Of a DNA stretch of 64,000 nt, positions 2,267 to 56,089 are shown in pieces. A model generated the notes under the pieces. It ran no database searches. It saw nothing but the letters and a program-made list of their open reading frames with translations, and was not told the DNA's origin. The DNA is taken from assembly GCA_903895695.1 (NCBI GenBank), contig CAITUY010000122.1, positions 94-64,093 of the forward strand. Direction: 5' to 3'. This DNA comes from an uncultured bacterium. GTDB lineage: Bacteria > Verrucomicrobiota > Kiritimatiellia > CAIKKV01 > CAITUY01. Position 1 is the first letter of the stretch. The number at the start of each line of letters is the position of its first letter. A program made the position numbers and the translations under genes.

Positions 2267-3205
2267 TCAGCCGGCCCGGTCGCCCGCCCGCAGCGGATAC
2301 CCGCGCACGAAGGCGCTGCCGGGCATCGGTTTCTTCCCTTCGGGTTGGACCACCAGCAGGCGCAAGGCGCCGGCGCCGGTCTGCACGAGCGGGCCTGCCT
2401 CGGCGTTGGAGAGGATCGCGCCCGGACCAGCCTGGCCGTCGGGCTCCATGCCTGCTGCTAGAATCTTGACCCAACGGCCCGAACCGGCGGGTAGTTCGCA
2501 CTGGCAACCGGGCCAGGGATTGAACGCACGCAGCCGGTTTTGAATCGTCTGCGCAGGCATCGTCCAGTCAATGCGCCCGTCCGTCTTCTTCAATTTCGGC
2601 GCGACCGTGGCCGCGTTCTCATCCTGGGGCACGCGCGGCGCCCGGCCCGCGCGCAACAGGGCCATGGTCTCGGCCAAGGCGTCGGCCCCCACCGCGGCCA
2701 GCTTATCGTGCAGCGTGCCGCCGGTGTCGTCCCCGGCAATCGTCAGCTCGCGTTTGAGGATCATGTCGCCGGCATCCATGCGCTCGTTGAGGAACATGGT
2801 CGTCACGCCGGTCACCTGCTCGCCAAGGGCGACCGCCCATTGGATCGGCGCGGCGCCGCGGAACTTGGGCAGCAGCGATCCATGGACATTGATGCAGCCC
2901 AACGGCGGCAGGGCCAACAGGGCCGGCTTGAGGATCTGCCCATAAGCAACGACCACGATAACATCCGGCCGCAATGCGCCAAGGATGGCCAGACTTTCGG
3001 GCGTGTTGACTTTCTCGGGCGTGAACACGGGGATGCCGCGGTTGCCGAGTCGGTCCTTGACCGGACACGGCGCCAATTCGAGGCGCCGGCCCTTGGGCCG
3101 GTCCGGCTGGGTCACGATGCCCACGACTTCGTCGGCCGGATTCGCCAAGAGGCGTTCCAGCGACGGGCAGGCGAACGCCGCCGATCCCATGAAGATGATG
3201 CGCAT
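2267..3205 (-). CDS. fmt: methionyl-tRNA formyltransferase
   Basis: 312 aa. MRIIFMGSAAFACPSLERLL...VVGIVTQPDRPKGRRLELAPCPVK...INVHGSLLPKFRGAAPIQWA is the canonical Fmt N-terminal formyltransferase core. The C-terminal domain is also present. Confidence 0.92.
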   Translation of the reverse strand: MRIIFMGSAAFACPSLERLLANPADEVVGIVTQPDRPKGRRLELAPCPVKDRLGNRGIPVFTPEKVNTPESLAILGALRPDVIVVVAYGQILKPALLALPPLGCINVHGSLLPKFRGAAPIQWAVALGEQVTGVTTMFLNERMDAGDMILKRELTIAGDDTGGTLHDKLAAVGADALAETMALLRAGRAPRVPQDENAATVAPKLKKTDGRIDWTMPAQTIQNRLRAFNPWPGCQCELPAGSGRWVKILAAGMEPDGQAGPGAILSNAEAGPLVQTGAGALRLLVVQPEGKKPMPGSAFVRGYPLRAGDRAG

Positions 3206-3217
3206 GTGGGAAAAGAA

Positions 3218-3320
3218 GTGAACAGTGAACGGTAAACAGTGAACGGTTCCTGCGACCGTTCACCATTCGCTGCTCACTGGTCCACTGTTCACTATTTACC
3301 GGTCACTGTTCACTGTTCAA
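3218..3320. repeat. ~100-bp imperfect palindrome built from heptad GTGAACR repeats
   Basis: The left arm is gtgaaca gtgaacg gtaaaca gtgaacg (3218-3246). The central perfect hairpin is gtgaacgg (3239-3246), a 9-nt loop, then ccgttcac (3256-3263). The right arm, ctgttca ctattta ccggtca ctgttca ctgttca (to 3320), is the near reverse-complement of the left arm. It fills the fumarate hydratase beta / fmt intergenic space. Confidence 0.65.
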
Positions 3321-3325
3321 ACGGC

Positions 3326-3931
3326 TCACGCCTCGAAGCGATCGCCGTCGCGGAGCACGCGCTTGAGATGGCGGCGGGAGGCGGTCTGGATGCGTCGCAG
3401 CATGCTGCGACCGTGCGCGTCAATGGCGACAATGGCGGGGAAGTCACTCACCTCGAGTTCCCACATGGCCTCGGCGAGGCCGAATTCGCGGGCGAAGTGC
3501 AGACCCTTGACCGCCGTCACCTTCCCGGCCAGCACCTGCGCTGCGCCGCCTACCGCGTGCAGATATACGCAACCGTTTTCGGCGCACACCTGCTCGGTCC
3601 GCGGGCCCATCGACCCCTTGCCGATGATGAGGCGGACGCCGTGCTGCTTGACGATCCGGGGAAGATACGGTTCCTCGCGGATGGATGTAGTCGGACCCGC
3701 CGCCCGCACCACCCAGGCCCCATCCTGCCGGATGGCCACCGGGCCGCAGTGGTAGAGTCCGCCATCCTTCAGACTGACGGGGCACTTGCCGCCCTCGTAC
3801 AGGTGCTTGTGCAGGCGATCCCGCGCCGTGAAAAGCAATCCGCTGACCGACACGAATTGGCCGGCTTCGAGCGGCAGCACCTGCTCGGCCGTAAACGGAT
3901 AGCGCAGCGCCCGCGGGGTCAGTACAGCCAT
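3326..3931 (-). CDS. Fe-S hydro-lyase beta subunit (class I fumarate hydratase / tartrate dehydratase, C-terminal domain type)
   Basis: ORF 3326..3988. The internal ATG at 3931 (MAVLTPRALRYPF...) overlaps the alpha-subunit stop by 13 nt. GLLFTARDRLHKHL...GLYHCGPV...AAGPTTSIREEPYLPRIV...IIGKGSMG is the FumA C-terminal/TtdB pattern. Confidence 0.8.
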   Translation of the reverse strand: MAVLTPRALRYPFTAEQVLPLEAGQFVSVSGLLFTARDRLHKHLYEGGKCPVSLKDGGLYHCGPVAIRQDGAWVVRAAGPTTSIREEPYLPRIVKQHGVRLIIGKGSMGPRTEQVCAENGCVYLHAVGGAAQVLAGKVTAVKGLHFAREFGLAEAMWELEVSDFPAIVAIDAHGRSMLRRIQTASRRHLKRVLRDGDRFEA

Positions 3932-4806
3932 CGCTTCATCCCTCCGCTGGGGCTGAGCACCGCGCCGCGCCGCCGGAACGCCCAGCACATGTAGGAGACC
4001 GACACGAAAAACGATGCGGGCAGACGGCTGAGCGCCCCGATCTTCACTCCCAGCACCGCCGTCTGGCCCCCCAGGCCCATGGGGCCGATGTCGAGCGTGC
4101 GAGCCTCGCGCACGATCCGCTGCTCAAGCCGCGCTAGCACGCGGATACGGGCGCGATCGTCCAGTTTGCGCAGGAATTGCTCCTTGGCGTGTTCGCAACC
4201 GGTGCAACGGTCGCCGCCGATCGATACGCCCAGGATGCCCGGCGCGCAGCCGTTCCCCTGGGTCTGAACCAAGGCATCCAGGATGCAGCGCCGCACGCCA
4301 TCCAGATCGCGGCCTGCCGCGATCGCCTCGTCGGGCAGGCTGTACTGGCGGCCCATATTCTCGCATCCGCCGCCCTTCATCAACAGTCGCACATCCACCG
4401 TGCTGCGGGCGCATTGTTCGAAACAGAATACCGGGGCCCCGTAGGCCACGTTGGTCTGGTAGGGCTCGCCCGTCAAGGAGTCGATCGTATTCTGGCGCAG
4501 GTAGCCCAGCCGCGTGGCGCGCGCAACGGCCAACCGGGCTGCCGCCGCCAACGCGTTGGTATCGAACCCCACCGGCACATGAAACCGGAAGATCAGGCTG
4601 CCGGTGTCCTGACACAGCGGCGCATCGTTCTTCCGGGCGGCCTCCACGTTCGACAGGATCGTCTCCAGCACCCACCGGGCACGGCTGCCTTTTTTCTCAA
4701 CGGACAGGGCCCGGCGCAGGGACGATTCGACATCGGCCGGCAGGTCGACCGACGTGCGGCGGATCAGTTCGAACAGGTTGGCTTCCCACTGGGCGTGATT
4801 CTTCAT
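3919..4806 (-). CDS. Fe-S hydro-lyase alpha subunit (class I fumarate hydratase / tartrate dehydratase, N-terminal domain type)
   Basis: 295 aa. PLCQDTGSLIFRFHVPVG...RQNTIDSLTG...NVAYGAPV...KGGGCENMG...GGQTAVLGVKIG is the class-I fumarase catalytic-domain pattern with Fe-S cysteines. Confidence 0.8.
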   Translation of the reverse strand: MKNHAQWEANLFELIRRTSVDLPADVESSLRRALSVEKKGSRARWVLETILSNVEAARKNDAPLCQDTGSLIFRFHVPVGFDTNALAAAARLAVARATRLGYLRQNTIDSLTGEPYQTNVAYGAPVFCFEQCARSTVDVRLLMKGGGCENMGRQYSLPDEAIAAGRDLDGVRRCILDALVQTQGNGCAPGILGVSIGGDRCTGCEHAKEQFLRKLDDRARIRVLARLEQRIVREARTLDIGPMGLGGQTAVLGVKIGALSRLPASFFVSVSYMCWAFRRRGAVLSPSGGMKRWLY

Positions 4807-4831
4807 TCAAGTGTGGCAATGGTTAGCACAT

Positions 4832-4865
4832 TCACGGCATGAGTTCAACTGCCACGGTGTCGGCC
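4832..4865. repeat. left copy of a direct repeat; orphan duplicate of the hemW 3' end (putative island junction)
   Basis: 4836-4865 (ggcatgagttcaactgccacggtgtcggcc) matches 11284-11313 at 29/30 positions. With the stop-codon region included (4832-4865 vs 11280-11313) it matches at 31/34. The reverse complement reads ADTVAVELMP-stop, identical to the last 10 residues of HemW, but here it has no upstream reading frame. Confidence 0.65.
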
Positions 4866-4950
4866 GTGGCAATTCCCACTATGGCCACACAGATTCCGTG
4901 GGGACATCACCCTCCAGTCAAGCCGGCGCCCGGAACGACATCGCGCCCGA

Positions 4951-5358
4951 TCACATGTCGTAGGCGATCAACTCCAATCGCTTGATGGCCCGAAAATGCC
5001 CGGTGTTGCGTGTCACCAAGGGAGAACCGTGTTCGAGTGCCCAGGCGGCAATCCACAGGTCCGGTTTCGACAAACCGCCCAGTACGTTGCGCGTCCGCAG
5101 GTCGGCCACGGTTCGCGCGTAATGCTCGGCCGTCTCCAATCCAACCTGTCCCAGCGCGAACAACCGGAGGAACTCCAGCGACTCGTTGAAGCGTCGCGGC
5201 GAAACGACAGCGCCTCCTTCGAGAAACTCGCCTGCCGCGTGTGCGGGCACGGCAAACGTTTCACTTCCTGCCTCGCGCAGGAGACGGACACAACCCGCGT
5301 CCTCGCGCCCTGCACTCCTCCACAAATCGACAAGGAACGTGGTGTCAACGCAGAGCAT
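4951..5358 (-). CDS. vapC: PIN-domain ribonuclease toxin VapC
   Basis: ORF 4951..5397. The ATG at 5358 gives MLCVDTTFLVDLWR... (PIN N-terminal Asp). The C-terminal part, ...DLWIAAWALEHGSPLVTRNTGHF, is the PIN pattern. It overlaps the upstream antitoxin by 14 nt. Confidence 0.8.
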   Translation of the reverse strand: MLCVDTTFLVDLWRSAGREDAGCVRLLREAGSETFAVPAHAAGEFLEGGAVVSPRRFNESLEFLRLFALGQVGLETAEHYARTVADLRTRNVLGGLSKPDLWIAAWALEHGSPLVTRNTGHFRAIKRLELIAYDM

Positions 5359-5596
5359 GGAGTCTCCACTTTTCCTGGGTTCGATTCTCTCGGACAACCG
5401 CGAGCATCTGCTCTGCCTCGCGATCCGGCAGTGCTTCCGTTTTGTCCAAAGCCGCTACGATGCTACGGCCCGTGTGCGCTGCGGCGGCAACATTGAGCAG
5501 TCTGCCAATCACTTTGGTAAACGATTCCGACTCCCGCTTCTCGCCAGCAAGTCGGGCGTAGACAGTTGATTCAATCGCGATGGTCTTGGTGCTCAT
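5345..5596 (-). CDS. vapB: VapB-type antitoxin
   Basis: 83 aa. MSTKTIAIESTVYARLAGEKRESESFTKVIGRLL resembles the small VapB family that begins M.KTI.I...VY..L...K...ESFS.VI. It sits directly upstream of vapC and overlaps it. Confidence 0.6.
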   Translation of the reverse strand: MSTKTIAIESTVYARLAGEKRESESFTKVIGRLLNVAAAAHTGRSIVAALDKTEALPDREAEQMLAVVRENRTQEKWRLHALR

Positions 5597-5663
5597 GTAT
5601 GTATATTTGCATATCGGCGCATACGTATCAAGCGCGCCAGATGAGCCAAGATACTCACCCTTC

Positions 5664-8180
5664 TCATTCCATCTCGACCCAGTAAAACGCCGAGTCAGGC
5701 GCCCCAGTGGCAGTCGGAATCACATACTCGGTCCGTGGGGCGACGCCCGGTACACCCGTGGTAATCGTGTCGTAACCCCGTTGTGTCAGGTCCGTACGCC
5801 GGTTGACGCGATACGTCCGATCCGCGCGACCGTTCCACACGATCGACAACAGTCCGCCGACCGCCGCGTCGGCCCGCACGACTTTGAAACAGGACTCCTT
5901 GTCGTTGGGATCGGTACCCGCGGCGATCTCCATGCCGTCCGACACGCCGTCGTTATCGGAATCCGCCAGCAAAGGATTGGTGTGGTAGACGTTGATCTCG
6001 TCGCCATCCGTCAACCCGTCGCCGTCGGTGTCGGGGTTCATCGGATCCGTCAACAGCGCTGCCTCTTGGTCGTTCGATAGTCCGTCGTTGTCGGCATCAT
6101 CGAGAATTGTCACCACGATATCACAAATCTCCACAACTGCATTGGGCACCCCCCGGCTGACCAGAGTGAAAATCAGTTGATTCGTTTGGCCGGCATACTG
6201 TGCGATGGACGCGGATCCTTCCAGAGACGTGTTTCGAGACAAATCCATGTCGGAGCCGACAAAGAGCGGCGTACCATTTGTGCCCCAACGCACCGTCAGA
6301 AAATCACCATCGCCACCTGACACGAATTGGTAATGGAATCGGACCGTCTGCGCGCCGATCGGAACGACCATGGTCTTGAGGATGCCGGCGTCGGCTTCCT
6401 CCTCGACACGGAAACAACCTCCGTTCGTTCCGACAAGGCCGAACGTGTCGAATCCGGTCAATGGTTCTTCGCTGCCCGCCGCTATCCCCATCGACGTCAT
6501 CGCAGACATAGCGGACAGATCCTGACCGTGAAAGCCGTTCTGCATGAACGGCGAATAGTAGAACCCATTTTGAACGTCCGCACCGCTTGGTGTCGTCTGA
6601 TAGACATACCAGTCGTGAACGCGGGAATGCTCAGTCGGTCTGAGTGGGAACCAACTCTGAGGTTTCAAATCGTATTCGAAATATCCCGTCCCTGCCACTG
6701 GGCCACCGACCCACCACGCAACGGTTCCATAACCAGCTTCCGCGTAATACCGCTCAATCGTTGTCTTTGCACCGTTAGCGCTCGCTGGGTGCAACCAAGT
6801 GTCATCGCCCGGCACGATGAACGGAGTGTCAAGTGTCGTGACCTGAATGTTGCTGAAGCCACCGATGTTGCGCAGTTGCTTCGCGCATTCCGACACGACA
6901 AAGCCGCCGGCACTATGTCCAATGAGTTGGATTGGAGCCGATGGATCAACATTGCCCGCGCGGACCTGTGCGAGGATCCAGTTCGCGAGGTGAACGCCCT
7001 GGTCGGTGGCCGGAGCGTGGACCGCCATCAACCCCATAACAAACAACTCCGGGTACCCGAGGTACTTCAGCCACGATATCCAACTCACGCCATCAAATTG
7101 CGCACTCCAACTGTCCAGACCGGAGGGGTCAGCCAGTTCATGCCAGTCGAGGATCGCAATATTCGGGATAGGGTTGGTTATGCTTCCCAACCGGTCTTGG
7201 GCATCGGTACAGAAACTCAGCAGCCATGGGTCCGTGCCCGTGCCCTGGTAACCGTGCGTGATTACAACGAGACCAGCAGCGATCCGGTCGGTCGAGAAAG
7301 CGAAGGGATTCCCGTAGGGTCCCCCCAACATGGTCCCACCCACTGGATCTACGGCCGGAAAACGTACCGAAGGTTGTCCGTCCACCGCCGACTTGTTAAA
7401 CACCACCTTCACCGATGCCGTCGCCCGCCGGCCCTGCATGTCGGTCGCGATCACGGTCAGCAGTCGCGTGCCGGCCGCCCCGGTGACCCGCCATCCTGCC
7501 AAGGCTGGCCCAATACAGTTGGCGAGCGTCACGCCATCCAGTTGCCATTGCCAAGTAACCGAGCCGTAGGCGCCGGCTACGGTACACTCGGAGGTGTTCA
7601 AATCCCAATTGCCGGCGGAACCATTCGGCGTCGCCACACACAATCCCATCTGTACTGTCAACGCCTTGGCGATCGTCACTTCGAACGGCGGCGCCACCAC
7701 ATAACCGGAGGGCCGTTTGTAGCCCGCGCGCACATTGACGGTCGTGGGCGAGGCCGGAGTCCCGGCCGTGAATTGACCGCAGCCCACAAAGGTTCCATCC
7801 GGCGCCGCGCCGTCAACCCACCAGTCGCACAACGTGGCGACATCCGCAAATGTCCCGTCGTCGCAAGAGGCCAAACACGCCAGTTGAAGGGTCTGGCCGG
7901 GCGTGCAGTCGGTCGGCCCGCCGACGGTCAAAGACAAGACGCGCCCGCTGCGGGTGTCGAACGCGAACAACGGCGACACACCCGATGCATCGGTCCCCAA
8001 CCCACCCCGCGTGTCGAATACAAACCCGGCCGAGTCTGACACGGCTGACGCGACGCCGATTCGGGTGTCGAAGGCGAACACCCCCGAATCACCGGAGGCC
8101 GTGTCGGCCTGCGTCCCCATCGCGGCCCCCAGAATCAAGGCCCAAACGGCACAGTAGCGGCCGATATGTATTCGCGTCAT
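5664..8180 (-). CDS. secreted multidomain alpha/beta-hydrolase (lipase/esterase-like) with thrombospondin type-3 calcium-binding repeats
   Basis: ORF 5664..8480. The start was moved to ATG 8180 (MTRIHIGRYCAVWALILGAAMGTQA, a signal peptide), because the upstream extension is Gln/Arg-rich and overlaps the DGR TR. Three F-x-F-D-T-R repeats follow the signal peptide. The nucleophile elbow is IQLIGHSAGGFVV (GxSxG). The C-terminal part carries DADNDGLSNDQE...DPDTDGDGLTDGDE...DSDNDGVSDGME (TSP3-type repeats). Confidence 0.7.
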   Translation of the reverse strand: MTRIHIGRYCAVWALILGAAMGTQADTASGDSGVFAFDTRIGVASAVSDSAGFVFDTRGGLGTDASGVSPLFAFDTRSGRVLSLTVGGPTDCTPGQTLQLACLASCDDGTFADVATLCDWWVDGAAPDGTFVGCGQFTAGTPASPTTVNVRAGYKRPSGYVVAPPFEVTIAKALTVQMGLCVATPNGSAGNWDLNTSECTVAGAYGSVTWQWQLDGVTLANCIGPALAGWRVTGAAGTRLLTVIATDMQGRRATASVKVVFNKSAVDGQPSVRFPAVDPVGGTMLGGPYGNPFAFSTDRIAAGLVVITHGYQGTGTDPWLLSFCTDAQDRLGSITNPIPNIAILDWHELADPSGLDSWSAQFDGVSWISWLKYLGYPELFVMGLMAVHAPATDQGVHLANWILAQVRAGNVDPSAPIQLIGHSAGGFVVSECAKQLRNIGGFSNIQVTTLDTPFIVPGDDTWLHPASANGAKTTIERYYAEAGYGTVAWWVGGPVAGTGYFEYDLKPQSWFPLRPTEHSRVHDWYVYQTTPSGADVQNGFYYSPFMQNGFHGQDLSAMSAMTSMGIAAGSEEPLTGFDTFGLVGTNGGCFRVEEEADAGILKTMVVPIGAQTVRFHYQFVSGGDGDFLTVRWGTNGTPLFVGSDMDLSRNTSLEGSASIAQYAGQTNQLIFTLVSRGVPNAVVEICDIVVTILDDADNDGLSNDQEAALLTDPMNPDTDGDGLTDGDEINVYHTNPLLADSDNDGVSDGMEIAAGTDPNDKESCFKVVRADAAVGGLLSIVWNGRADRTYRVNRRTDLTQRGYDTITTGVPGVAPRTEYVIPTATGAPDSAFYWVEME

Positions 8181-8383
8181 CTGACACACTCCGTTTGCAT
8201 TCACGTTCGTTTCGGAGAACTGGGGCTTTCGACTTCCGTCTACCGGCCCCATTTCTCGTCCCGTCTTCGTTCCGCACGCCTCATGACCCGCGAAACAGGT
8301 CCGACCGGTGGGCTTCGAAGGGTCGCCGACGGCGTCCGTGAACGCCACCGCTCCGCCCACACCGCGACTGGCGCGGCTTCGAT

Positions 8384-8502
8384 CCCCCTCACACAACGGA
8401 AGCCATTGTTGTTGTTCGTGTTCCCCGGCCCGTTGTTGTTCCGGTAGGCGCACCGCAGGTTGTCCGTGTTGTTGTTCCACGTGCCGCCCCGCAGGACGCG
8501 TC
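8384..8502 (-). repeat. DGR template repeat (TR)
   Basis: 8384-8500 aligns without gaps to VR 9999-10115 (offset 1615). The 18 mismatches are all plus-strand T in the TR, which is A on the coding strand. In the target frame the TR reads RVLRGGTWNNNTDNLRCAYRNNNGPGNTNNNNGFRCVRG and is rich in AAC codons. Confidence 0.92.
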
Positions 8503-9573
8503 CGCTATTCCCGCCGAACCTAGAATTCCGTCAATCTGACCTCTGATCCTCTCGACAGCCGTTCCCGAATCCGCCTCCATCGCATGCCCGCGCCAACTGT
8601 ACCACCGTTGCGACAGACTGCGTGGCGACAAGGCGCCTCTCGCGCATTCCCTTGCACACCACACCAACCGCCTCCGGGCCGCTCTGACATTCGGCGCGAC
8701 AAGTCGCCGCCGATTCGGCCAGACCCTCTGCCCCAGAAACGTCAATCCATCCCTCGTTTGGTATGTCCTCGACTTGCGTTCGTTCAGACGCAATCTCATC
8801 TCTGCCAATTCCCCTTGGATCGCCGCCCGCCATTCCGTCAACTGCCGCCGTTCCTCACCAAATAGTACGAAGTCGTCCACATACCGAAGATATCCAGGAC
8901 ACCGCAACGTTTCTTTGACCCAGTGGTCGAAGTCGGAAAGATACACGCACCCAAACCACTGACTGGTCAGGTTACCGATAGGCAATCCCACCCGAACGGC
9001 GCCGGCAACCGCCAGATCGTCGCCGGGAAACACCGTGCAGACCGACTCCTGCGGATTACTCGCGTCGACAATCGTGTCCAGCAACCACAGTGTCTCGCGG
9101 CATCCGATCGTCCGCCGTAGCGTGGTCTTCAGAATGCCGTGGTCCATGCTCGGAAAGTACTTCCGAATGTCGCACTTGAGTGCGTACGGAAAACGGCGCG
9201 CGTAATGCTGGCATCGGCGAATCGCCGCGTGCGTCCCCTTGCCCTCCCGATTGGAGTACAGATCGAAAATCATTTTCTGCTCGAATAACGGCATGATGAC
9301 CCGGCACAGGGCGTGGTGCACCACCCGGTCGCGAAACGGCGCGGCGCTGATCATGCGGGTCTTCGGCCGAGTGATCGTCCTGACGCTGTAACCGCCTGGC
9401 CGATAAGTCCGTTCCGACAACTCGCGCCGCAAGGCCATCAACTCGCTCTCCAGGTTCGTGTTGAAACGCCCCACCACGTCGGCAAAGCGCTTACCGCGGC
9501 TCGCCAGGCGAGCCGCGGCCAACAGGTTGTCGAACGCGCAAATCCGTTCGTACAAATGGTTGTGGGTCTCCAT
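8389..9573 (-). CDS. DGR reverse transcriptase
   Basis: 394 aa. RT motifs are present: ISAAPFRDRVVHHAL, the YVDD catalytic box (YLRYVDDFVLF) and the DGR hallmark LPIGNLTSQWF. The ATG at 9573 abuts the avd stop at 9574. The last ~37 codons (...CGAARGTTTRTTCGAPTGTTTGRGTRTTTMASVV) are the TR read in another frame. Confidence 0.92.
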   Translation of the reverse strand: METHNHLYERICAFDNLLAAARLASRGKRFADVVGRFNTNLESELMALRRELSERTYRPGGYSVRTITRPKTRMISAAPFRDRVVHHALCRVIMPLFEQKMIFDLYSNREGKGTHAAIRRCQHYARRFPYALKCDIRKYFPSMDHGILKTTLRRTIGCRETLWLLDTIVDASNPQESVCTVFPGDDLAVAGAVRVGLPIGNLTSQWFGCVYLSDFDHWVKETLRCPGYLRYVDDFVLFGEERRQLTEWRAAIQGELAEMRLRLNERKSRTYQTRDGLTFLGQRVWPNRRRLVAPNVRAARRRLVWCARECARGALSPRSLSQRWYSWRGHAMEADSGTAVERIRGQIDGILGSAGIADASCGAARGTTTRTTCGAPTGTTTGRGTRTTTMASVV

Positions 9574-9936
9574 TCAACCTTTCGTTTCCGGCCGTTCGGT
9601 ACCACATGCATGCTTGAGCCAACCGCCGATCATACGCCCAACATCATTCAACTTCTCGGCAATGGTTCCATACCGTTGCGTGTTCAGCAGTTTCAGGTCA
9701 TGCGCCAGCCTAACGAGATGCCGTGTCACCTCAATGCCCATGTTGGCATCCGCAAGGTACTGCCGCTTGTCTTTGCTGTAGTAGGCCCGCACGCAGCACT
9801 CCTGAATGTCCAACAGCTTGATTTCAATCCTGTCGCCCAAAACGAACTTCTGATCCCGCGGGAACTTCGCCAAGACCGGAACGACGTAAAGCATCAGGTC
9901 ATGCAACCGTGTAAGGACATTGTCGGAATCAGCCAT
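9574..9936 (-). CDS. avd: DGR accessory variability determinant (Avd; four-helix-bundle, 23S rRNA intervening-sequence protein family)
   Basis: 120 aa. LAKFPRDQKFVLGDRIEIKLLDIQECCVRAYY...LVRLAHDLKLL...YGTIAEKLNDVGRMIGGWLKH is the typical Avd pattern. It is located between the target and the RT. Confidence 0.85.
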   Translation of the reverse strand: MADSDNVLTRLHDLMLYVVPVLAKFPRDQKFVLGDRIEIKLLDIQECCVRAYYSKDKRQYLADANMGIEVTRHLVRLAHDLKLLNTQRYGTIAEKLNDVGRMIGGWLKHACGTERPETKG

Positions 9937-9992
9937 CTGAAACTATCCTCAGACGAAAATCGAAAAAGGGTAAAGAAGACAGAGCAAAAAGA

Positions 9993-11189
9993 TCAAAGCC
10001 CCCTCACACAACGGAAGCCATAGCCGTAGTACGAGCCCCCCGGCCCGTCGGCGTTCCGGCAGGCGCACCGCAGGTTGACCGAGTAGTCGTACCACGCGCC
10101 GCCCCGCAGGACGCGGCTTCCAACGGTCGCGGGGCCTTTCGGGTTATCGCCCGCTTCGGCCCACCCATAGTACGTGCTGTCATACCAGTCCCAACACCAC
10201 TCCCAGACATTGCCGGCCATGTCGTACAGCCCGCAACCATTCGCCATGTCCGGTCCGGCAGGTGTCTGCGCGCCGTTGTAGTAACCGCAGGGTGTGGTCC
10301 CCGGTGATCCACTCTCGTACGGATCGCCGCTGCCTGAATAGTTGGCATTGCTCCCGCCAATGGTGTCACCCCACGGATAGCGCTTTCCCGACAGACCGCC
10401 TCGGGCCGCCTTTTCCCACTCAGCCTCGGTCGGTAGACGGTACCCGTTGGCCGTCCATTTGACGCAGGCGTTGGATAGGTTCAGATTGCTGCTTCGGTAG
10501 ACGGTGCTCTGATCGGCACTGGTGTAGTAGACGGGCGTCAGACCTTCCTTCTCGGACCTCGCGTTGCACCACTTGACTGCATCAAACCAGTTCATGGTTT
10601 GAGCCGGGTGATCGGCGGCGCGACCGGAACCGTTGCTCAGATCGTACCCGTGCGAAGCCGACCAGGTCCTGACGTCAGTCCACAACGCGTACGACACTTC
10701 GAACTTATCCATGTAGAATGCGGTAACTTGCACGGTATGGACTGGTCTTTCGTTGTCGTTGCCGTCGCCGGGATTCGTGCCCATCAGGAACGGTCCCGGC
10801 GGAATGTAGGCCATGTTGAGGGGCGGCACGGGCGTGACGCCATCGCTGGAAATAACCCGCACACGGGCCGTATCCACATACTGCCCGTTCCAGTCCAAGC
10901 CGGCGTTCCAGACAATGTGCTTGTTCGATCCGGGCGTGATCCCGGTCCCCACGTCGCCCGACAAATTGACGACGGGGATGCGATAGGTGACGCCTCCATC
11001 GGCGGAGATCAGCACCTGTACCGACTGCGCATGCCCGGTGGCATCGGTGACATCGTAATAGATATCGACCTGTTTGGTGCCGGTCCGCTGGGACGCGTGC
11101 ACGTTCGACACGACTGGCGTGGCCCAGAGAGAGCCGCACGCCAAGGTCAATCCCGCCGCCAACACTCCCGCCAACCTTAACTTGCTCAT
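9993..11189 (-). CDS. DGR target protein: signal peptide, N-terminal beta-sandwich region, and FGE-sulfatase/C-type-lectin-fold domain ending in the VR
   Basis: ORF 9993..11267. The start was set at ATG 11189 (MSKLRLAGVLAAGLTLACGSLWA). The FGE-type domain is shown by YRLPTEAEWEKAARGG...YPWGD...LYDMAGNVWEWCWDWY...RVLRGGAWY. The C-terminal 39 aa form the VR (AWYDYSVNLRCACRNADGPGGSYYGYGFRCVRGL). Confidence 0.9.
   Translation of the reverse strand: MSKLRLAGVLAAGLTLACGSLWATPVVSNVHASQRTGTKQVDIYYDVTDATGHAQSVQVLISADGGVTYRIPVVNLSGDVGTGITPGSNKHIVWNAGLDWNGQYVDTARVRVISSDGVTPVPPLNMAYIPPGPFLMGTNPGDGNDNERPVHTVQVTAFYMDKFEVSYALWTDVRTWSASHGYDLSNGSGRAADHPAQTMNWFDAVKWCNARSEKEGLTPVYYTSADQSTVYRSSNLNLSNACVKWTANGYRLPTEAEWEKAARGGLSGKRYPWGDTIGGSNANYSGSGDPYESGSPGTTPCGYYNGAQTPAGPDMANGCGLYDMAGNVWEWCWDWYDSTYYGWAEAGDNPKGPATVGSRVLRGGAWYDYSVNLRCACRNADGPGGSYYGYGFRCVRGL
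9999..10117 (-). repeat. DGR variable repeat (VR) at the 3' end of the target gene
   Basis: This is the counterpart of TR 8384-8502. The 3' 23 nt (9999-10021) are identical to the TR (an IMH-like invariant end, ...GGCTTCCGTTGTGTGAGGGGG on the coding strand). Homology ends 4 nt upstream of the target stop codon. Confidence 0.92.
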
Positions 11190-11239
11190 GGTTGTTCTCC
11201 GGCCTAATTGGATCCCATCATCAGGTAACTGTGCAGGCA

Positions 11240-11261
11240 GCGTGCGCGAATAGTCGCACGC
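11240..11261. terminator. hairpin just downstream of the hemW stop, at the island edge
   Basis: gcgtgcg (11240-11246), an 8-nt loop, cgcacgc (11255-11261), a perfect 7-bp stem. There is no clear U-tract. Confidence 0.3.
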
Positions 11262-11279
11262 CGTCAACCGAGAACGGTC

Positions 11280-11313
11280 TTATGGCATGAGTTCAACCGC
11301 CACGGTGTCGGCC
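11280..11313. repeat. right copy of the direct repeat (functional 3' end of hemW)
   Basis: See 4832-4865. This copy is in frame with the full hemW ORF (…RDLADTVAVELMP-TAA). The left copy uses TGA and a synonymous Pro codon. Confidence 0.65.
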
Positions 11314-12677
11314 AGATCGCGACCGCGGGCCGTCAACACCCGGCGCCCGCCGAGGGTGCGTACCAGACCTTCGCGCCGCAGGCGCGCGAACGTCGTTGCC
11401 CAGTGGGTGCCGAGTGCCGACTGTTCCATCGAACCGCCAGGTAGGGCGACGGCGTCCTCGCCGCGCCGTGCCTGTTGCGTGCCTGTTACGGCGCGGCGGG
11501 GACGCCGTCGCCCTACCCCAATAGGCAAGGATGCATTCCGGGCGTCCAAAGCCGCCAGGATACCGGCCGGCTCAACGCCTTCAGCCATGCGCAGCCCAAA
11601 AATCAACCGTTCCACCGCCTCTGTTTCAGGTGTCAACCGCTCGACCTCACGGGGCGGCATCGACCCCGCCCGGGCTGCCTGCAAATAGGCGTCCAGATCC
11701 GGCGCGTTCGTCCAGCGCGAGTGGTTCGCATGCGAGGCCGCCGCACAGCCCACGCCGAGATACGACTCCCCGCGCCAGCAGGATACGTTGTGACGGCACT
11801 CGAACCCGGGCCGGGCGTAGTTGGAGATCTCATACCGCCGCAAGCCGGACGCCCGCAGCAGCTGTTCCGCCGTGTGCAGGCAGGCCAGTTGCCCCTCCTC
11901 ATCCAACAGGGCCGCGTCGCCCGCCGCGATCTGGCCCGCCAACCGGCTCCCCTCCTCACTCGTCAGAGCGTAGACTGACATGTGGGGCGGCCCCAGCGCC
12001 ACCGCGGCCCGCACGGTCTCAGCCCACTGCCGCGCCATGACGCCCGGCACGCATCCGATGAGATCGAGGCTCCAGTTCCGGAAGCCTGCCGCCCGGATAA
12101 GCGCGCAGGCCTCGCGGGCCTGGGCCGCTGTGTGACGCCGTCCCAACCGGGCCAGCACCGCATCGTCCAGCGACTGCACCCCAAGGCTGATCCGGTTCAC
12201 GCCGGCGGCCTTCAGCACGGCCAGGCGTTCCGCGTCGAGCGTGCCGGGATTGGCCTCGACGGTCCATTCTTTCAGCCGCCGCAGATCCAGATGCCGGGCC
12301 GGGATCGCGCACAGGCGGGCCAACTGCCGGACCGTCAGAATCGTGGGCGTGCCACCGCCCATGTAGAGCGTGCGCGGCGCCAGCGGCACTTGCGGACTGA
12401 CAGCGGCCTGCATGCTGCTGGTCCCGCAGTCCCCGACGGCGTCTACCGGCCGGGGACGGCCGGCTCCAAGACGAGCCAACGCCGACTTGGAGCCGGCGGT
12501 CCTCCGCCGGTAGCAATGGAGTCGACTTTCCGCCTCCAGTTCCAACTCCAGGGCGTCGAGATAGTCGTCGATGTCGCCGGTCCTGCCGGACAGCGAATAG
12601 AAGGCACAGTACCCGCACTTCCCGTCGCAGAACGGGACATGCAGATAAACGCCCTCAATGGGGGACGATGCGCGCAT
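11280..12677 (-). CDS. hemW: radical SAM family heme chaperone HemW (HemN-like, oxygen-independent coproporphyrinogen oxidase family)
   Basis: 465 aa. VYLHVPFCDGKCGYCAF is the CxxxCxxC radical-SAM cluster motif. Also present are LYMGGGTPT, EANPGTL and NRISLGVQSLDD. It is longer than usual because of two Arg/Ala/Gly-rich inserts. Confidence 0.8.
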   Translation of the reverse strand: MRASSPIEGVYLHVPFCDGKCGYCAFYSLSGRTGDIDDYLDALELELEAESRLHCYRRRTAGSKSALARLGAGRPRPVDAVGDCGTSSMQAAVSPQVPLAPRTLYMGGGTPTILTVRQLARLCAIPARHLDLRRLKEWTVEANPGTLDAERLAVLKAAGVNRISLGVQSLDDAVLARLGRRHTAAQAREACALIRAAGFRNWSLDLIGCVPGVMARQWAETVRAAVALGPPHMSVYALTSEEGSRLAGQIAAGDAALLDEEGQLACLHTAEQLLRASGLRRYEISNYARPGFECRHNVSCWRGESYLGVGCAAASHANHSRWTNAPDLDAYLQAARAGSMPPREVERLTPETEAVERLIFGLRMAEGVEPAGILAALDARNASLPIGVGRRRPRRAVTGTQQARRGEDAVALPGGSMEQSALGTHWATTFARLRREGLVRTLGGRRVLTARGRDLADTVAVELMP

Positions 12678-13497
12678 GCAACAGGTCCACCAGGCTGTCG
12701 GGCACGTTGAGGTGGCCGAATCCCGTGCCCAGGTGGATATCGGGGTTGATGGCGCCGTGGAAATCCGACCCGCCGCTCACGGCCAGGCCGTTCGCCTCGG
12801 CGATCGACAGGCATTGCTTCTGTTGGTCGGTATTGTGCTCCGAGTAGTACGCCTCAATGCCCTGCAATCCCTGGCGCGTCAGGTCGGCGACATACTCGCG
12901 CAACCGCCGCCGCTCGTAGCCCAGGGTGAACGGATGCGCCAACACCGACACGCCGCCTGCCTGGCGGATCAGGGCGATGCTCTCGGCGACCGAAAGCCGG
13001 AAACGGTCCGCGTAGGCCGGCTTCCCCTTGCCCAACAGCCGGCCGAAGGCCTCGTCCTTGTCCTTCACGAAACCCTTCTCGATCAACGCCATGGCAAAGT
13101 GCGGCCGGCCGACCACGTCTTCGAGCGCAAACTTCGCCACGTCGTCCCAGGCCAGCGCGATCCCGAGTTTGTGCAGCTTTTCGAGAATCAGGCGGTTACG
13201 GTCGACCCGCATGTTCCGCAGCCGGATGAGGGCCGCATCGAGGGCCGGGTTCCGGTGGTCGAGGAAAAGCCCGAGCATGTGCAGCGTGCCGGGGCCGAAC
13301 TCCACGCTGATTTCGACGCCGGAGATGCCCCGGATTCCAGCGGTCCCGCAGGCCTCGAGAAAGGGGTCGATCCCCATCATGCCGTCGTGATCCGTCAGCG
13401 CCAGCGCGGTCAGGCCCGCCTGGCGGGCGCGGTCCACCAGCGCGGCGGGCGTAAGCGTGCCGTCCGAAAACGTCGAATGGGTGTGAAGGTCAATCAT
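12655..13497 (-). CDS. PHP-domain metal-dependent phosphoesterase (TrpH/YciV-like)
   Basis: 280 aa. MIDLHTHSTFSDGTLTPAALVDRARQAGLTALALTDHD...ISGVEIS...VLAHP...GGSDFHG is the PHP motif series. Confidence 0.8.
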   Translation of the reverse strand: MIDLHTHSTFSDGTLTPAALVDRARQAGLTALALTDHDGMMGIDPFLEACGTAGIRGISGVEISVEFGPGTLHMLGLFLDHRNPALDAALIRLRNMRVDRNRLILEKLHKLGIALAWDDVAKFALEDVVGRPHFAMALIEKGFVKDKDEAFGRLLGKGKPAYADRFRLSVAESIALIRQAGGVSVLAHPFTLGYERRRLREYVADLTRQGLQGIEAYYSEHNTDQQKQCLSIAEANGLAVSGGSDFHGAINPDIHLGTGFGHLNVPDSLVDLLHARIVPH

Positions 13498-14330
13498 GGC
13501 GTAGATTCGTTCACGGCTCTTACCCAGTCGCGCAGGCGCTGCCGCTCCGGCAGGTCGCGCAGCACCCAGGCGTCCGTGTGATTGGGGTACGGTAGATCCA
13601 GATACGTGAACGGCGCGCGGATGCCGGTCGATTCCAGGTACCGGCGCGTCGGGCTCGCGGACCCCTCATGGCTGATGAAGACGGGCCGCCCGTTCAGTCG
13701 CTGCAGGCGCCCCAGCGCGGAAGCGCGGTCGGCGCCGGCATAGGGCCAGGATTCGATCACGCCGTCGTACTGGCTGTGCGCGATGAACCCGACCCAGAGC
13801 CTGGCGATCGTGTCATCGTGCAGCCCGATGAAATTGCACGCAATCGCACCTCGCGAAAAACCGGCCAGGAACACGGCGCTTGCGTCGCCGCCGTATTGCG
13901 TGCAGATACGCGCGACGCTCTGCCGGCAGTAGTCCACCGTCGCCTCCACGTCGCCCCACCATTGCGTGGCGTTGCGTTTCCCGACCGGGTCCACGTACGG
14001 CAGGCAAGCCCAGATGAACCCGCTGCCCCCCGAGATGCCGTAGCCAAGGTTGCTGCCTTCAACGGTGCCGTTCGAGACGTCGCCCAGTCCATTCCGGTAA
14101 TCGCCGTTCCCGGCGTATTCGACGATGACCGGATGGGTGCGGCCCGGCGCCCAATCCGCCGGCAGGTACAAGGCGTGGTGTACGCCGGTCCCCCGCCATT
14201 CCGGCCAGACTTGCCGGACGCGCTTGCCGGCCGTCGGTTCGCCCTCGGAAAGCGCCGGGGTCGTCAGGTCCGCCGGCAGATCGTTAAGCGGGATTGACGC
14301 GATTTTCAAACTCGGTCCTCCCGATCTCAC
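13494..14330 (-). CDS. alpha/beta-hydrolase esterase (CE1/PHB-depolymerase-like)
   Basis: ORF 13494..14510. The first ~60 codons overlap the upstream gene and are Arg/Trp/Pro-rich, which suggests an out-of-frame shadow. The likely start is therefore GTG 14330 or TTG 14309. The motif VFLAGFSRGAIA is a GxSxG elbow. The start coordinate is uncertain. Confidence 0.55.
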   Translation of the reverse strand: MRSGGPSLKIASIPLNDLPADLTTPALSEGEPTAGKRVRQVWPEWRGTGVHHALYLPADWAPGRTHPVIVEYAGNGDYRNGLGDVSNGTVEGSNLGYGISGGSGFIWACLPYVDPVGKRNATQWWGDVEATVDYCRQSVARICTQYGGDASAVFLAGFSRGAIACNFIGLHDDTIARLWVGFIAHSQYDGVIESWPYAGADRASALGRLQRLNGRPVFISHEGSASPTRRYLESTGIRAPFTYLDLPYPNHTDAWVLRDLPERQRLRDWVRAVNESTP

Positions 14331-29678: not shown

Positions 29679-30220
29679 CGCCGCCATGCCCTTCGGTAGT
29701 TGCCGCCAATGGGTATGGCGCGGTTCTCGAAATAGTTGTCGTCGACCTCACAGGGGGTCGACACCTCCAGCAGGAGGGCCGGTCCCCTGCCCGTGAAGCT
29801 GTGGTAGGTCCAACGCGGGACGGGGAATACGTCGCCGGGCTTCATGATCCAGTTCCTCGCCCCGCTGCACATGCGAACGCGCCCCTGCACGATGAAAAAG
29901 GTCTCGTGCTTGGTCTTGTGCCGGTGCATCGGGCACGTCTGGCCGTCGAAGACGAAGAGATATTTGCCGCAGTAGCCGGCCCGGCCCTCATTGGCTATCC
30001 AGTACTCGATGAGCCCGGTCTTGTCGAACTCGCCCAATCCGAAGTCCAGCACCAGTGGCGGCACAGGCGGCATCGGCAGGCGCCACTTCTTGATCTGTGC
30101 CTTGAACCGGACCAGAGCCTTGTCGGCGGCTTTGCCCTTGAGGCAGATATCCAGCGCCTTCTTCAGTTCTTTCATGGTTGCTCCGAATCCCTTCCTGCTT
30201 GTCTTGTGGTCGCTGGTCAT
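29675..30220 (-). CDS. cupin-fold D-lyxose/D-mannose-type sugar isomerase
   Basis: ORF 29675..30301. The ATG at 30220 overlaps the vapC stop (ATGA). An alternative ATG is at 30175 (MKELKKAL). GKYLFVFDGQTCPMHRHKTKHETFFIVQGRV...GDVFPVP...HSF is the D-lyxose ketol-isomerase cupin metal-site pattern. Confidence 0.65.
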   Translation of the reverse strand: MTSDHKTSRKGFGATMKELKKALDICLKGKAADKALVRFKAQIKKWRLPMPPVPPLVLDFGLGEFDKTGLIEYWIANEGRAGYCGKYLFVFDGQTCPMHRHKTKHETFFIVQGRVRMCSGARNWIMKPGDVFPVPRWTYHSFTGRGPALLLEVSTPCEVDDNYFENRAIPIGGNYRRAWRR

Positions 30221-30630
30221 ATCTGTTGCGTCTTCAGTCCAGCCCGTTTTGCCGCGTGCAACTGTTGTGCATCGGAGGACACAAACAGTTCCGCACCCCA
30301 TTCAAGAGCACAGGCTACGTGTAGGGCGTCCATCGCACGGACAGGGCTTTGCTCCAGAATTCCGAGCGCTGACCCAATCACGGTTGGAGTCAGATTGATG
30401 ATATCCGCGTCGCGGACGTCCTCCAACAGGTGCCGTTTCGCCTGCACGTATTGCGGTTGCGTCAACAGCCTTTCGCGAAGACGCCGGTTCAGTGCCGAGA
30501 CAATCTCCGGCACGCAGATCACGCTCAGCCCGAGTTCGCTGGCCCGGGCGCAGATGGCCTCGGTCTTCTCGCTCCCGACTTCCTCGATGAAGCGCTTCGC
30601 AAACACGGAGGAATCAAGAAACAGCTTCAT
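30217..30630 (-). CDS. vapC: PIN-domain ribonuclease toxin VapC
   Basis: 137 aa. MKLFLDSSVFAKRFIEE...MDALHVACALEWGAELFVSSDAQQ has the PIN acidic residues in canonical positions. Confidence 0.85.
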   Translation of the reverse strand: MKLFLDSSVFAKRFIEEVGSEKTEAICARASELGLSVICVPEIVSALNRRLRERLLTQPQYVQAKRHLLEDVRDADIINLTPTVIGSALGILEQSPVRAMDALHVACALEWGAELFVSSDAQQLHAAKRAGLKTQQI

Positions 30631-31361: not shown

Positions 31362-31679
31362 TTACTCGTTGAGGGCGATGGCAAAAACAATGGCGGTCCG
31401 AATCTCACGCATACGAGTCGCGGATAGCGAGGTGAGCAGGGACCCGATCTTGGCCTTGGCAACAGTCTGCATGTGATCGCAGTTGACTGCGCATTTTCTT
31501 GGCATCCCGTCCCCACTATCCAAGAGCACTTCGCTAGGAATATCCCGGATGGTGGAGGTCACCGGTGCGACGGTCACCTCGCTAATGTGGGGGATAATGG
31601 AGTCTCGGGTCAAAACGACAACCGGGCGACTCTTGTCCGGCTTCTCGAATTTGTACCAGCGGACATCGCCACGCTTCAT
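31362..31679 (-). CDS. mazF: MazF/PemK-family endoribonuclease toxin
   Basis: 105 aa. MKRGDVRWYKFEKPDKSRPVVVLTRD...VAPVTSTIRDIPSEVLL...VNCDHMQTV is the PemK/MazF pattern. An ATGA overlap links it to the upstream antitoxin. Confidence 0.85.
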   Translation of the reverse strand: MKRGDVRWYKFEKPDKSRPVVVLTRDSIIPHISEVTVAPVTSTIRDIPSEVLLDSGDGMPRKCAVNCDHMQTVAKAKIGSLLTSLSATRMREIRTAIVFAIALNE

Positions 31680-55449: not shown

Positions 55450-55872
55450 TCACTCCTTCACACTCTTGAAAGGGTTGCATACGGTGAGACCATCGAACTT
55501 CTGGCCGTCATTGAGGTCCTCTGTATAAAGGATGTCACACCGGGCTTTCTGGGCGGCAACGATGACGAGAGCGTCCCAGAACGAGACCCGCCACAGAATA
55601 TTGCCTTCTATTGCCCTGCCGATGTCATCCAATTCGATCGTCACCGTTCTCAAGTTCCTGAACGAATGGATGATGTCCTTCACCTTCAGCGGAGCTATGT
55701 TCAGCTTGCGGGTGGCTGTGACGTAGAACTCCTGGACAACCTGGGTGGATATGCACGGCGGGAGAGCGCCCGATTCCCGCCTCATGATCTCCCTGGCCGC
55801 TTTCCGCTTGGCGGGTTGGTCCAGGTCACAGGCATAGACCAGGATGTTGGTATCCAGAAATCGGTTAGACAT
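55450..55872 (-). CDS. vapC: PIN-domain toxin (VapC-like)
   Basis: ORF 55450..55926. The start is ATG 55872 (MSNRFLDTNILVYACD...). ...FWDALIVAAAQ-type and ...ILYTEDL motifs are present (FWDALVIVAAQKARCDILYTEDLNDG). Its stop is 2 nt from the GH2 start codon. Confidence 0.8.
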   Translation of the reverse strand: MSNRFLDTNILVYACDLDQPAKRKAAREIMRRESGALPPCISTQVVQEFYVTATRKLNIAPLKVKDIIHSFRNLRTVTIELDDIGRAIEGNILWRVSFWDALVIVAAQKARCDILYTEDLNDGQKFDGLTVCNPFKSVKE

Positions 55873-56089
55873 CGTAGAGGTCCTCCCGTTTCCATTTCTT
55901 CCCGCCGGAGTGCCCTTTAGCCTCATCCATCTTGGCCAGGCATTCCACGACCCAGTCCGTACGCTCCTCCCTGACTACCTGCGTTAGAAGATCGCGGACG
56001 AGCGCATTGAGGGTCGTATGGTGCTCCTGCGCATAGCGTCGCCCCTGTTCGACCAACTCCTCTGAAACCGACAATGTCAGGTTCTTCAT
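55865..56089 (-). CDS. antitoxin (RHH/CopG-like) paired with the PIN toxin
   Basis: 74 aa from ATG 56089. MKNLTLSVSEELVEQGRRYAQEHHTTLNALVRDLLTQ is an RHH-like pattern. It overlaps the toxin by 8 nt. Confidence 0.6.
   Translation of the reverse strand: MKNLTLSVSEELVEQGRRYAQEHHTTLNALVRDLLTQVVREERTDWVVECLAKMDEAKGHSGGKKWKREDLYDV

Follow-up and report, generated by a model that had tools for sequence, protein, structure and literature searches.

An integrase-free island with a diversity-generating retroelement, inserted at the 3' end of hemW in a Kiritimatiellia-like bacterium

The DNA considered here is a window of 64 kb (64,000 nucleotides, whose numbering is used throughout) from contig CAITUY010000122.1 of an uncultured bacterium (assembly GCA_903895695.1), which its HemW protein places among Kiritimatiellia-like bacteria of the Planctomycetes-Verrucomicrobia-Chlamydiae (PVC) superphylum. 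Within it an island of 6.4 kb (4866-11283) separates hemW, the gene of a radical-SAM heme chaperone (11280..12677, minus strand, Pfam), from fumA, the gene of the class I fumarate hydratase alpha subunit (3919..4806, minus strand, Pfam Fumerase). The island consists of six co-oriented genes and is about 93% coding; like all genes of the region, these lie on the minus strand. They comprise a diversity-generating retroelement (DGR), a large secreted lipase-like protein and a VapBC toxin-antitoxin pair, and the whole is bracketed by two copies of the 3' end of hemW. The gaps between the repeats and the nearest island genes measure 85 and 94 nt, and the non-coding DNA of the island totals about 0.45-0.5 kb in short gaps.

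The repeat corresponds to the last ten codons of hemW. The attL-type copy (11284..11313, minus strand) ends hemW itself, and the orphan, attR-type copy (4836..4865, minus strand) is followed by the ancestral stop codon TGA (4832-4834) and the ancestral 25-nt hemW-fumA spacer. Read on the plus strand with its stop region, the orphan copy is tcacggcatgagttcaactgccacggtgtcggcc (4832-4865) and the hemW-end copy is ttatggcatgagttcaaccgccacggtgtcggcc (11280-11313); on the minus strand both encode A-D-T-V-A-V-E-L-M-P-stop. The core is identical at 29 of 30 positions, or 31 of 34 with the stop region, and the copies differ at GCG/GCA (Ala), CCA/CCG (Pro) and TAA/TGA (stop). These coordinates and identities reproduce those of an earlier note on this DNA, which was made from its letters alone and had pointed out the different stops and the synonymous Pro codon; the Ala codon differs too. 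The pair forms family D4 of the repeat finder, with a spacing of 6448 nt. A repeat pattern with up to three mismatches occurs at two sites only in the 64 kb and in none of 100 dinucleotide-preserving shuffles, and no such repeat is expected by chance. The suggestion that the same core might mark other junctions was followed within the window, where only these two copies were found. Among JGI metagenome loci, nine contain a 20-nt core pattern, of which one is a hemW locus with an empty site (L014) and eight are unrelated chance matches; neither the core, searched with this 20-nt pattern, nor the junction palindrome described below is present in IMG/VR. Both copies share the lineage-specific codons GAC ACC at a position where relatives have GAT TAC or GAC CAC.

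In eight related lineages, with hemW 43-70% identical to that of the window, the site is empty and hemW is followed directly by fumA, as the earlier note had proposed to check. Empty sites were found at the nucleotide level in relatives P0002 (loci L004/L005, hemW 70% identical), P0003 (L006, 67%) and P0004 (L007/L008, 61%) and in the JGI metagenome locus L014, which stems from a 70%-identical relative, and by gene order in three metagenome-assembled genomes of GTDB (L022, L023 and L025, hemW 43-44% identical). The closest relatives have the order PHP-hemW-fumA-fumB-fmt with a hemW-fumA gap of only 25-29 nt; in the window the corresponding neighbours are the PHP-domain protein gene (12655-13497), fumB (3326-3988) and fmt (2267-3205), all on the minus strand and assigned by Pfam. 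When L004, L006 and L007 are aligned to the window by blastn, the alignment ends exactly at 4865 on the fumA side and at 11284 on the hemW side, and only the 30-nt core aligns at both ends. Because the relatives' alignments break exactly at the repeat, the insertion is real. The TGA of the orphan copy and the next 25 nt are homologous to the hemW stop and spacer in the same three loci, and the orphan copy is thus the ancestral end of hemW, just upstream of which 6.4 kb were inserted. Judged from these alignments, 4866-11283 is a genuine insertion at the 3' end of hemW, as the earlier note had supposed. The flanks of the two copies share no other similarity of 11 nt or more, in keeping with its remark that nothing else around them is alike, and since the empty-site alignments overlap in the 30-nt core alone, the larger segmental duplication that it had named as a counter-explanation is ruled out.

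Contigs of the same species carry parts of the island in at least five ENA samples, including the attR junction (L001-L003, 99.8-100% identical). The organism is present in the samples ERZ18626419, ERZ18626558, ERZ18626337, ERZ27313095/6 and ERZ1426627. All of these ENA contigs contain island parts, and neither a same-species empty site nor a circle junction was seen among them; the excised circular form that the earlier note had envisaged did not appear in searches of the JGI metagenome, ENA and IMG/VR collections. The attL junction is spanned by none of the same-species ENA contigs because the assemblies break in a palindrome inside hemW.

The DGR occupies the hemW-proximal half of the island. 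Its variable-protein gene (9993..11189, minus strand) encodes a signal peptide and an FGE-sulfatase domain of C-type-lectin-like fold (PF03781, 3e-54) that spans residues 152-422, and the variable repeat (VR; 9999..10115, minus strand; repeat family D1) forms the 3' end of the gene, i.e. its last ~40 codons. The accessory gene avd follows (9574..9936, minus strand; PF22296 bAvd, 2e-21), and then the reverse transcriptase (RT) gene (8389..9573, minus strand; RVT_1, 3e-15), with an IGNLTSQ motif, and the 117-nt template repeat (TR; 8384..8500, minus strand). TR and VR differ at 18 of their 117 positions, and all 18 mismatches fall on adenines of the TR, which holds 30. With target, Avd, RT and adenine-specific TR-VR differences the DGR is genuine, and the cassette looks functional by its sequence. 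The VR is identical in five same-species metagenome contigs from at least four samples, so that no current diversification is visible at the consensus level, contig consensus being a weak test of it. Thousands of DGR-type RTs are 50-77% identical to that of the island; the best match in IMG/VR is 39% identical, and the best on PLSDB plasmids, in cyanobacteria, 51%. The RT open reading frame (394 aa here, 385 aa in the related locus L009) runs on into the TR (8389-8500), whose sequence makes up its last ~37 codons, and most RT relatives have 356 aa and a stop ahead of the TR. A 27-nt stretch of the lipase-like gene that matches the TR at 81% was considered as a second VR and judged a chance match.

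The remaining cargo consists of three genes. An 838-aa secreted multidomain protein (5664..8180, minus strand; Pfam TSP3_bac) begins with a signal peptide and three FxxDTR repeats and continues with Ig/CBM-like sandwich domains, a pancreatic-lipase-like alpha/beta-hydrolase domain with a GHSAG nucleophile elbow at residue 421, and TSP3 calcium-binding repeats. Its AlphaFold model (mean pLDDT 72) matches pancreatic lipase, PLRP2, Bacillus lipase and hornet phospholipase A1, as well as Ig- and CBM-like sandwich domains. The signal peptide, the GHSAG motif and the predicted fold together uphold the description "secreted hydrolase" of the earlier note. The family is very rare, with 13 proteins in 5.8 billion, and has no relative in IMG/VR. 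The genes of the antitoxin VapB (5345..5596, minus strand; PF02697, 1e-9) and of the PIN-domain toxin VapC (4951..5358, minus strand; PF01850, 4e-10; 135 aa in L001-L003) complete the island, so that Pfam bears out the vapBC and DGR content read from the sequence before.

The composition of the island is foreign to its surroundings. Its GC content is 60.0% against 64.3% in the rest of the window, of which it is the lowest-GC 6.4-kb stretch (~2.3 SD under the mean), and GC at third codon positions is 0.61-0.77 in its genes against 0.80-0.87 in the flanking ones; by both measures it is more A/T-rich than the fum and hemW flanks, as had been noticed. An RNA gene or tRNA as the true insertion target is ruled out, since the window contains no tRNA gene and 3000-13500 has no Rfam match. 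A scan for promoters and terminators gave nothing beyond shuffle expectation.

No recombinase gene lies within the island. All six frames of 4866-11283 were compared with Pfam at E<=1, and the three antisense frames matched no family. The sense frames gave as families only FGE-sulfatase, bAvd/23S_rRNA_IVP, RVT_1, TSP3_bac, VapB and PIN, besides sub-threshold alpha/beta-hydrolase matches and three other sub-threshold matches judged to be chance. There are thus no genes for integration, excision or transfer and no Pfam matches to phage structural, replication or packaging genes, in agreement with the earlier note, which had seen no integrase, transposase or phage gene inside. A hidden or decayed recombinase in the island is ruled out by the empty scan and the shortness of the non-coding gaps. 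The ~48 other open reading frames of the window include no integrase, resolvase or transposase, and the island ends carry no terminal inverted repeats. The island therefore does not have the integrase gene that lies inside tyrosine-recombinase elements, nor the terminal inverted repeats and transposase of a transposon. Neither phage Pfam matches nor close relatives in IMG/VR were found, so that an origin as a prophage or phage satellite is unsupported.

The junctions themselves suggest how the island may have entered. In the orientation of hemW, attL reads hemW...CTG/GGCCGACACCGTGGCGGTTGAACTCATGCC/ATAAGACCG...island and attR reads island...GGGAATTGCCAC/GGCCGACACCGTGGCAGTTGAACTCATGCC/GTGAATGTGC...fumA. 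At attR a perfect 8-6-8 palindrome, TGCCACGG-CCGACA-CCGTGGCA (4850..4871), overlaps the joint of island arm and repeat; at the attL copy its right half alone is present. The 64 kb hold only 13 such 8-6-8 palindromes, and the expectation for the junction zones is 0.018. An 8-6-8 dyad is the architecture of a tyrosine-recombinase core site, and the palindrome is a candidate core-type recombinase site. The identity block runs from the palindrome to the last sense codon of hemW, a layout usual for integrases whose targets are the 3' ends of tRNA or protein genes. Beyond the block, the island supplies 11280-11283, i.e. the third base of the hemW Pro codon and the stop: it gives A+TAA directly after ...ATGCC, and HemW stops at the residue where it stops in all relatives. 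The in-frame stop provided by the island thereby preserves the length and C-terminus of HemW. Each of the three differences between the 34-nt copies is silent (P=0.016 if substitutions were random).

The palindrome, the layout of the block and the supplied stop point to conservative site-specific recombination rather than to a duplication made at insertion, and so favour the attL/attR-like signature at a gene 3' end that the earlier note had recognised. We regard it as somewhat probable that the island is a horizontally acquired islet which entered site-specifically at the 3' end of hemW and now resembles a cis-mobilisable element (CIME), its recombinase having been lost or acting in trans. 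It is proposed that a circular form carried an attP site made up of the dyad-symmetric core (TGCCACGG-CCGACA-CCGTGG...), a mimic of the last hemW codons and a stop codon. Recombination of attP with the matching hemW sequence would have placed the island between hemW and fumA and doubled the 30-nt identity block, with the island's copy completing hemW. The recombinase may have come in trans from a helper element or the host, or have been encoded on a larger or tandem element since lost; we infer its class, its source and the structure of attP, and an integrase of the tyrosine type is the most likely. The cargo brought in would be the DGR cassette together with its conserved partner, the lipase-like protein, and a VapBC pair that would stabilise the island. 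The earlier note had offered three possibilities: of these, a decayed and a trans-mobilised element are not separable, and a route independent of recombinases is without positive support. The core-type palindrome at the junction speaks for a conventional site-specific recombinase that acted from outside the island.

Several observations weigh against this interpretation. Neither a cognate integrase nor a helper element was found, and none of the related elements has an integrase at a hemW site. In a GTDB scan that returned 80 loci, the 3' end of hemW is duplicated in none of the 23 PVC hemW loci checked, and the 25 most frequent of the 102 families encoded downstream of hemW in these loci include no integrase. 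There is accordingly no evidence for hemW as a recurrent att site, and an integration hot spot at hemW has no support in these 23 loci, a negative that is weak because the scan missed close relatives (best match 45% identical). None of the collections searched contains an attP, a circular junction or a same-species empty site. The high coding density and absence of pseudogene debris are unlike the usual leftovers of simple decay of a larger element, and the compact island would be easier to reconcile with a natural hitchhiker, or with a tandem partner cleanly lost, than with slow decay. The shared GAC ACC codons would be equally expected if the repeat were duplicated host sequence. The statistics for the palindrome (~0.02) and for the silent changes (0.016) are suggestive only. 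Finally, in the places searched the island shows neither derivation from an integrase-bearing element nor an att site in common with one.

The last point concerns the relationship with CIMEs, which are islands that have kept attL and attR but lost the genes for integration and transfer (PMC5704250); ICEberg 2.0 lists 235 of them (PMC6323972). Like CIME19258 and CIMEL3catR3 of Streptococcus thermophilus, the island has attL/attR-type repeats at a conserved gene's 3' end (PMC5704250, PMC6323972), no integration or transfer genes and a cargo of foreign composition. With its repeats, its empty site in relatives and its lack of integration genes it is a CIME in the structural sense. Known CIMEs, however, are recognisably derived from integrative and conjugative elements (ICEs) or integrative and mobilisable elements (IMEs) and share their att sites with a known integrase-bearing partner, whereas for the island no partner, ICE or IME sequence or debris was found; it also differs in its host, a Kiritimatiellia-like PVC bacterium, and in its target, hemW.

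Two further classes of integrated islands are comparable. DGR-bearing ICEs of Bacteroides are integrated at tRNA-Lys and flanked by direct repeats, and the mobility of DGRs that diversify bacterial proteins has been called 'relatively unexplored' (bioRxiv 10.1101/2024.11.15.621889). In these ICEs as in the island, the DGR diversifies a protein of bacteria and not of phages and is carried on a repeat-flanked element whose integration was, here probably, site-specific, but the ICEs are large and possess an integrase, excision regulators and conjugation genes, none of which is found in the 6.4 kb here. Islands inserted at tRNA, tmRNA or gene 3' ends by P4-like and lambda-like tyrosine integrases, such as the ssrA-integrated vcr islands of Dehalococcoides (PMC3146451), share with the hemW island a replacement 3' end that keeps the gene intact and, if the junction palindrome is a core site, a dyad-symmetric core. 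Their defining integrase gene beside the att site is what the island lacks. The literature searched gave no report that names hemW as an attachment site or describes DGRs in Kiritimatiellae.

Related DGR modules occur at other loci. The nearest RT (77% identical, L009-L012) is part of a module with the same four genes, for target, Avd, RT/TR and a TSP3 protein of 859 aa, and in L009 this module, 49-77% identical at the protein level, sits between an E1 dehydrogenase/UPF0175 antitoxin and mreBCD; its different chromosomal context indicates that the module is transferable. Further modules have RTs 64-70% identical to that of the island (L133, L142 and L139). In L133 and L142 target, Avd and RT occur with an MNT/HEPN toxin-antitoxin pair and a ~730-aa CarboxypepD_reg and Lipase (PF00151) protein, and L139 has ParE upstream and a 1402-aa protein followed by HicAB downstream. 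The flanks are different housekeeping genes each time, and in four of the five other contexts examined they are without integrases; the fifth (L130-L132) adjoins an IS66 transposase, a TrwC relaxase and a faint integrase match. No flanking repeats were found around L009 and L139. It appears that the DGR, the lipase-like protein and a toxin-antitoxin pair move together. It is conceivable, though rather unlikely, that the hemW island is one of a family of compact, integrase-free DGR-lipase-toxin-antitoxin cassettes of PVC bacteria which pass from one housekeeping locus to another with a recombinase borrowed in trans, from the host or a helper element, and each bring a coding mimic of the 3' end of their target gene.

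A large secreted protein almost always lies 3' of the related DGRs (RT 64-77% identical), as at 5664-8180 in the window, L009:6967-9546, L133:12179-14392, L142:8949-11123 and L139:8365-12573. It has two to three FxxDTR repeats after the signal peptide and usually a pancreatic-lipase-like domain (GHSxG), and the remainder varies between TSP3, CarboxypepD_reg and fn3. The FxxDTR repeats are common to these otherwise dissimilar proteins, which may be functional partners of the DGR variable proteins. Each related module has a different type II toxin-antitoxin: VapBC in the window (4951-5596), UPF0175 (L009:2850-3104), MNT/HEPN (L133:11469-12192; L142:6542-7199), and ParE and HicAB (L139:4769-5221 and 12845-13233). 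The pair of L142 interrupts the module, between the target gene and avd. Just upstream of the DGR module of L009 the UPF0175 antitoxin gene is flanked by a 30-nt direct repeat (2655-2684 and 3171-3200, 90% identical) containing the GC-rich hairpin GCCGAGC-CCCA-GCTCGGC, which may represent a repetitive extragenic palindromic (REP)-like element or the junctions of a mini-insertion.

The repeat could alternatively be a target-site duplication that arose from a staggered break of ~30 nt, either by a transposition-like process, by end joining, or by target-primed reverse transcription of a six-gene transcript by the RT of the island. Such an origin would account for the GACACC codons that both copies share and relatives lack, for the difference at only one of 30 positions and for the absence of a recombinase, and the co-orientation of six genes that include an RT suits its retrotranspositional version. 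The island, however, has neither terminal inverted repeats nor a transposase, and duplications of 30 nt are not known to us from any class of prokaryotic transposon. The island would also have to start with A+TAA by chance (~3/64) and to owe the 8-6-8 palindrome at its junction to coincidence. The RTs of DGRs make short cDNAs of ~100 nt and not 6-kb copies, and there is no poly-A or other mark of retrotransposition at the 3' end of the island. A target-site duplication is consequently judged improbable.

Still less probable is a Campbell-type integration by RecA, in which a circle with a short 3' fragment of hemW from a relative recombined with the resident hemW. The copies do resemble slightly diverged hemW ends with silent differences only, the hemW of L014 has GCA and CCA alleles like those in the copies of the window, and a recombinase is missing from island and window alike. 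A homology of 30-34 nt, on the other hand, is at the lower limit for RecA-dependent recombination. Such a circle must already have had the island joined to a hemW end, which only pushes the original insertion back, and a dyad-symmetric site exactly at the homology boundary would be left unexplained.

Equally low is the probability of a module of the type of integrative mobile elements exploiting Xer (IMEX) or of the pdif modules of Acinetobacter, which are free of integrases and moved by the XerCD of the host. An integrase-free cassette moved at its palindromic core by a Xer-like or housekeeping tyrosine recombinase of the host would explain a compact, debris-free island, a dyad-symmetric x-6-x site at its boundary and the occurrence of related DGR-lipase-toxin-antitoxin modules among housekeeping genes without integrases in four of five other contexts. 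IMEX and pdif modules likewise encode no recombinase, are small, often contain toxin-antitoxin genes and use x-6-x sites. Their sites, however, have a conserved dif/pdif consensus in non-coding DNA, whereas that of the island lies within the coding sequence of hemW, not at the chromosomal dif, and is by eye unlike the dif consensus, although the canonical consensus may not be that of this host. The modules of L009 and L139 moreover lack flanking repeats, and beyond the repeat pair there is no second copy of the core in the 64 kb.

The island bears on the spread of DGRs that diversify bacterial proteins, which is little explored and for which large ICEs are the documented route. The locus is a minimal DGR cargo island resolved to the base pair, with exact junctions, a known ancestral empty site and a candidate 22-bp recombination site, which makes a reconstructed attP x attB pair directly testable against candidate recombinases. 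Its clade of DGRs travels with a rare secreted lipase-like protein with three N-terminal FxxDTR repeats and a changing toxin-antitoxin, a hint that the functional unit may extend beyond the canonical target-Avd-RT cassette. Islands without an integrase that retain attL and attR are an established category, of which the island is an example with a DGR cargo and an unusually clean insertion history, and a specialist would for this reason not be very surprised. Should it prove mobilisable in trans, the CIME or satellite concept would extend to DGRs and to the PVC superphylum; should it not, it would be a stranded island of an ordinary type. A family of such cassettes, if it exists, would imply a satellite-like spread of targeted hypermutation without a cis-encoded recombinase.

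The neighbourhood of the island holds further peculiarities. HemW has 465 aa against ~385 aa in relatives because of two window-specific, in-frame palindromic insertions (11448-11553 and 12384-12537). Their arms (11440-11469/11488-11517, 97%; 12443-12473/12483-12513, 87%) form near-perfect hairpins with predicted RNA folds of -88 and -92 kcal/mol, and both are unique in the window. At least the insertion at 12384-12537 also occurs in same-species contigs from other samples, and one contig ends inside the other palindrome. The fumB-fmt spacer (3206-3325, 120 nt) contains an inverted array of GTGAACA-like heptamers, a potential large hairpin, with seven matches to GTGAACAGTGAAC where ~1 is expected; since the gap is only 6-29 nt in relatives, the spacer is another small lineage-specific insertion. 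Further toxin genes of the window encode two PIN-domain proteins and a PemK/MazF-like protein (30217-30630, 31362-31679, 55450-55926), and the region at ~30.2-32.3 kb, bounded by genes for a cupin and a GH123-like protein, may itself be a further small accessory islet.

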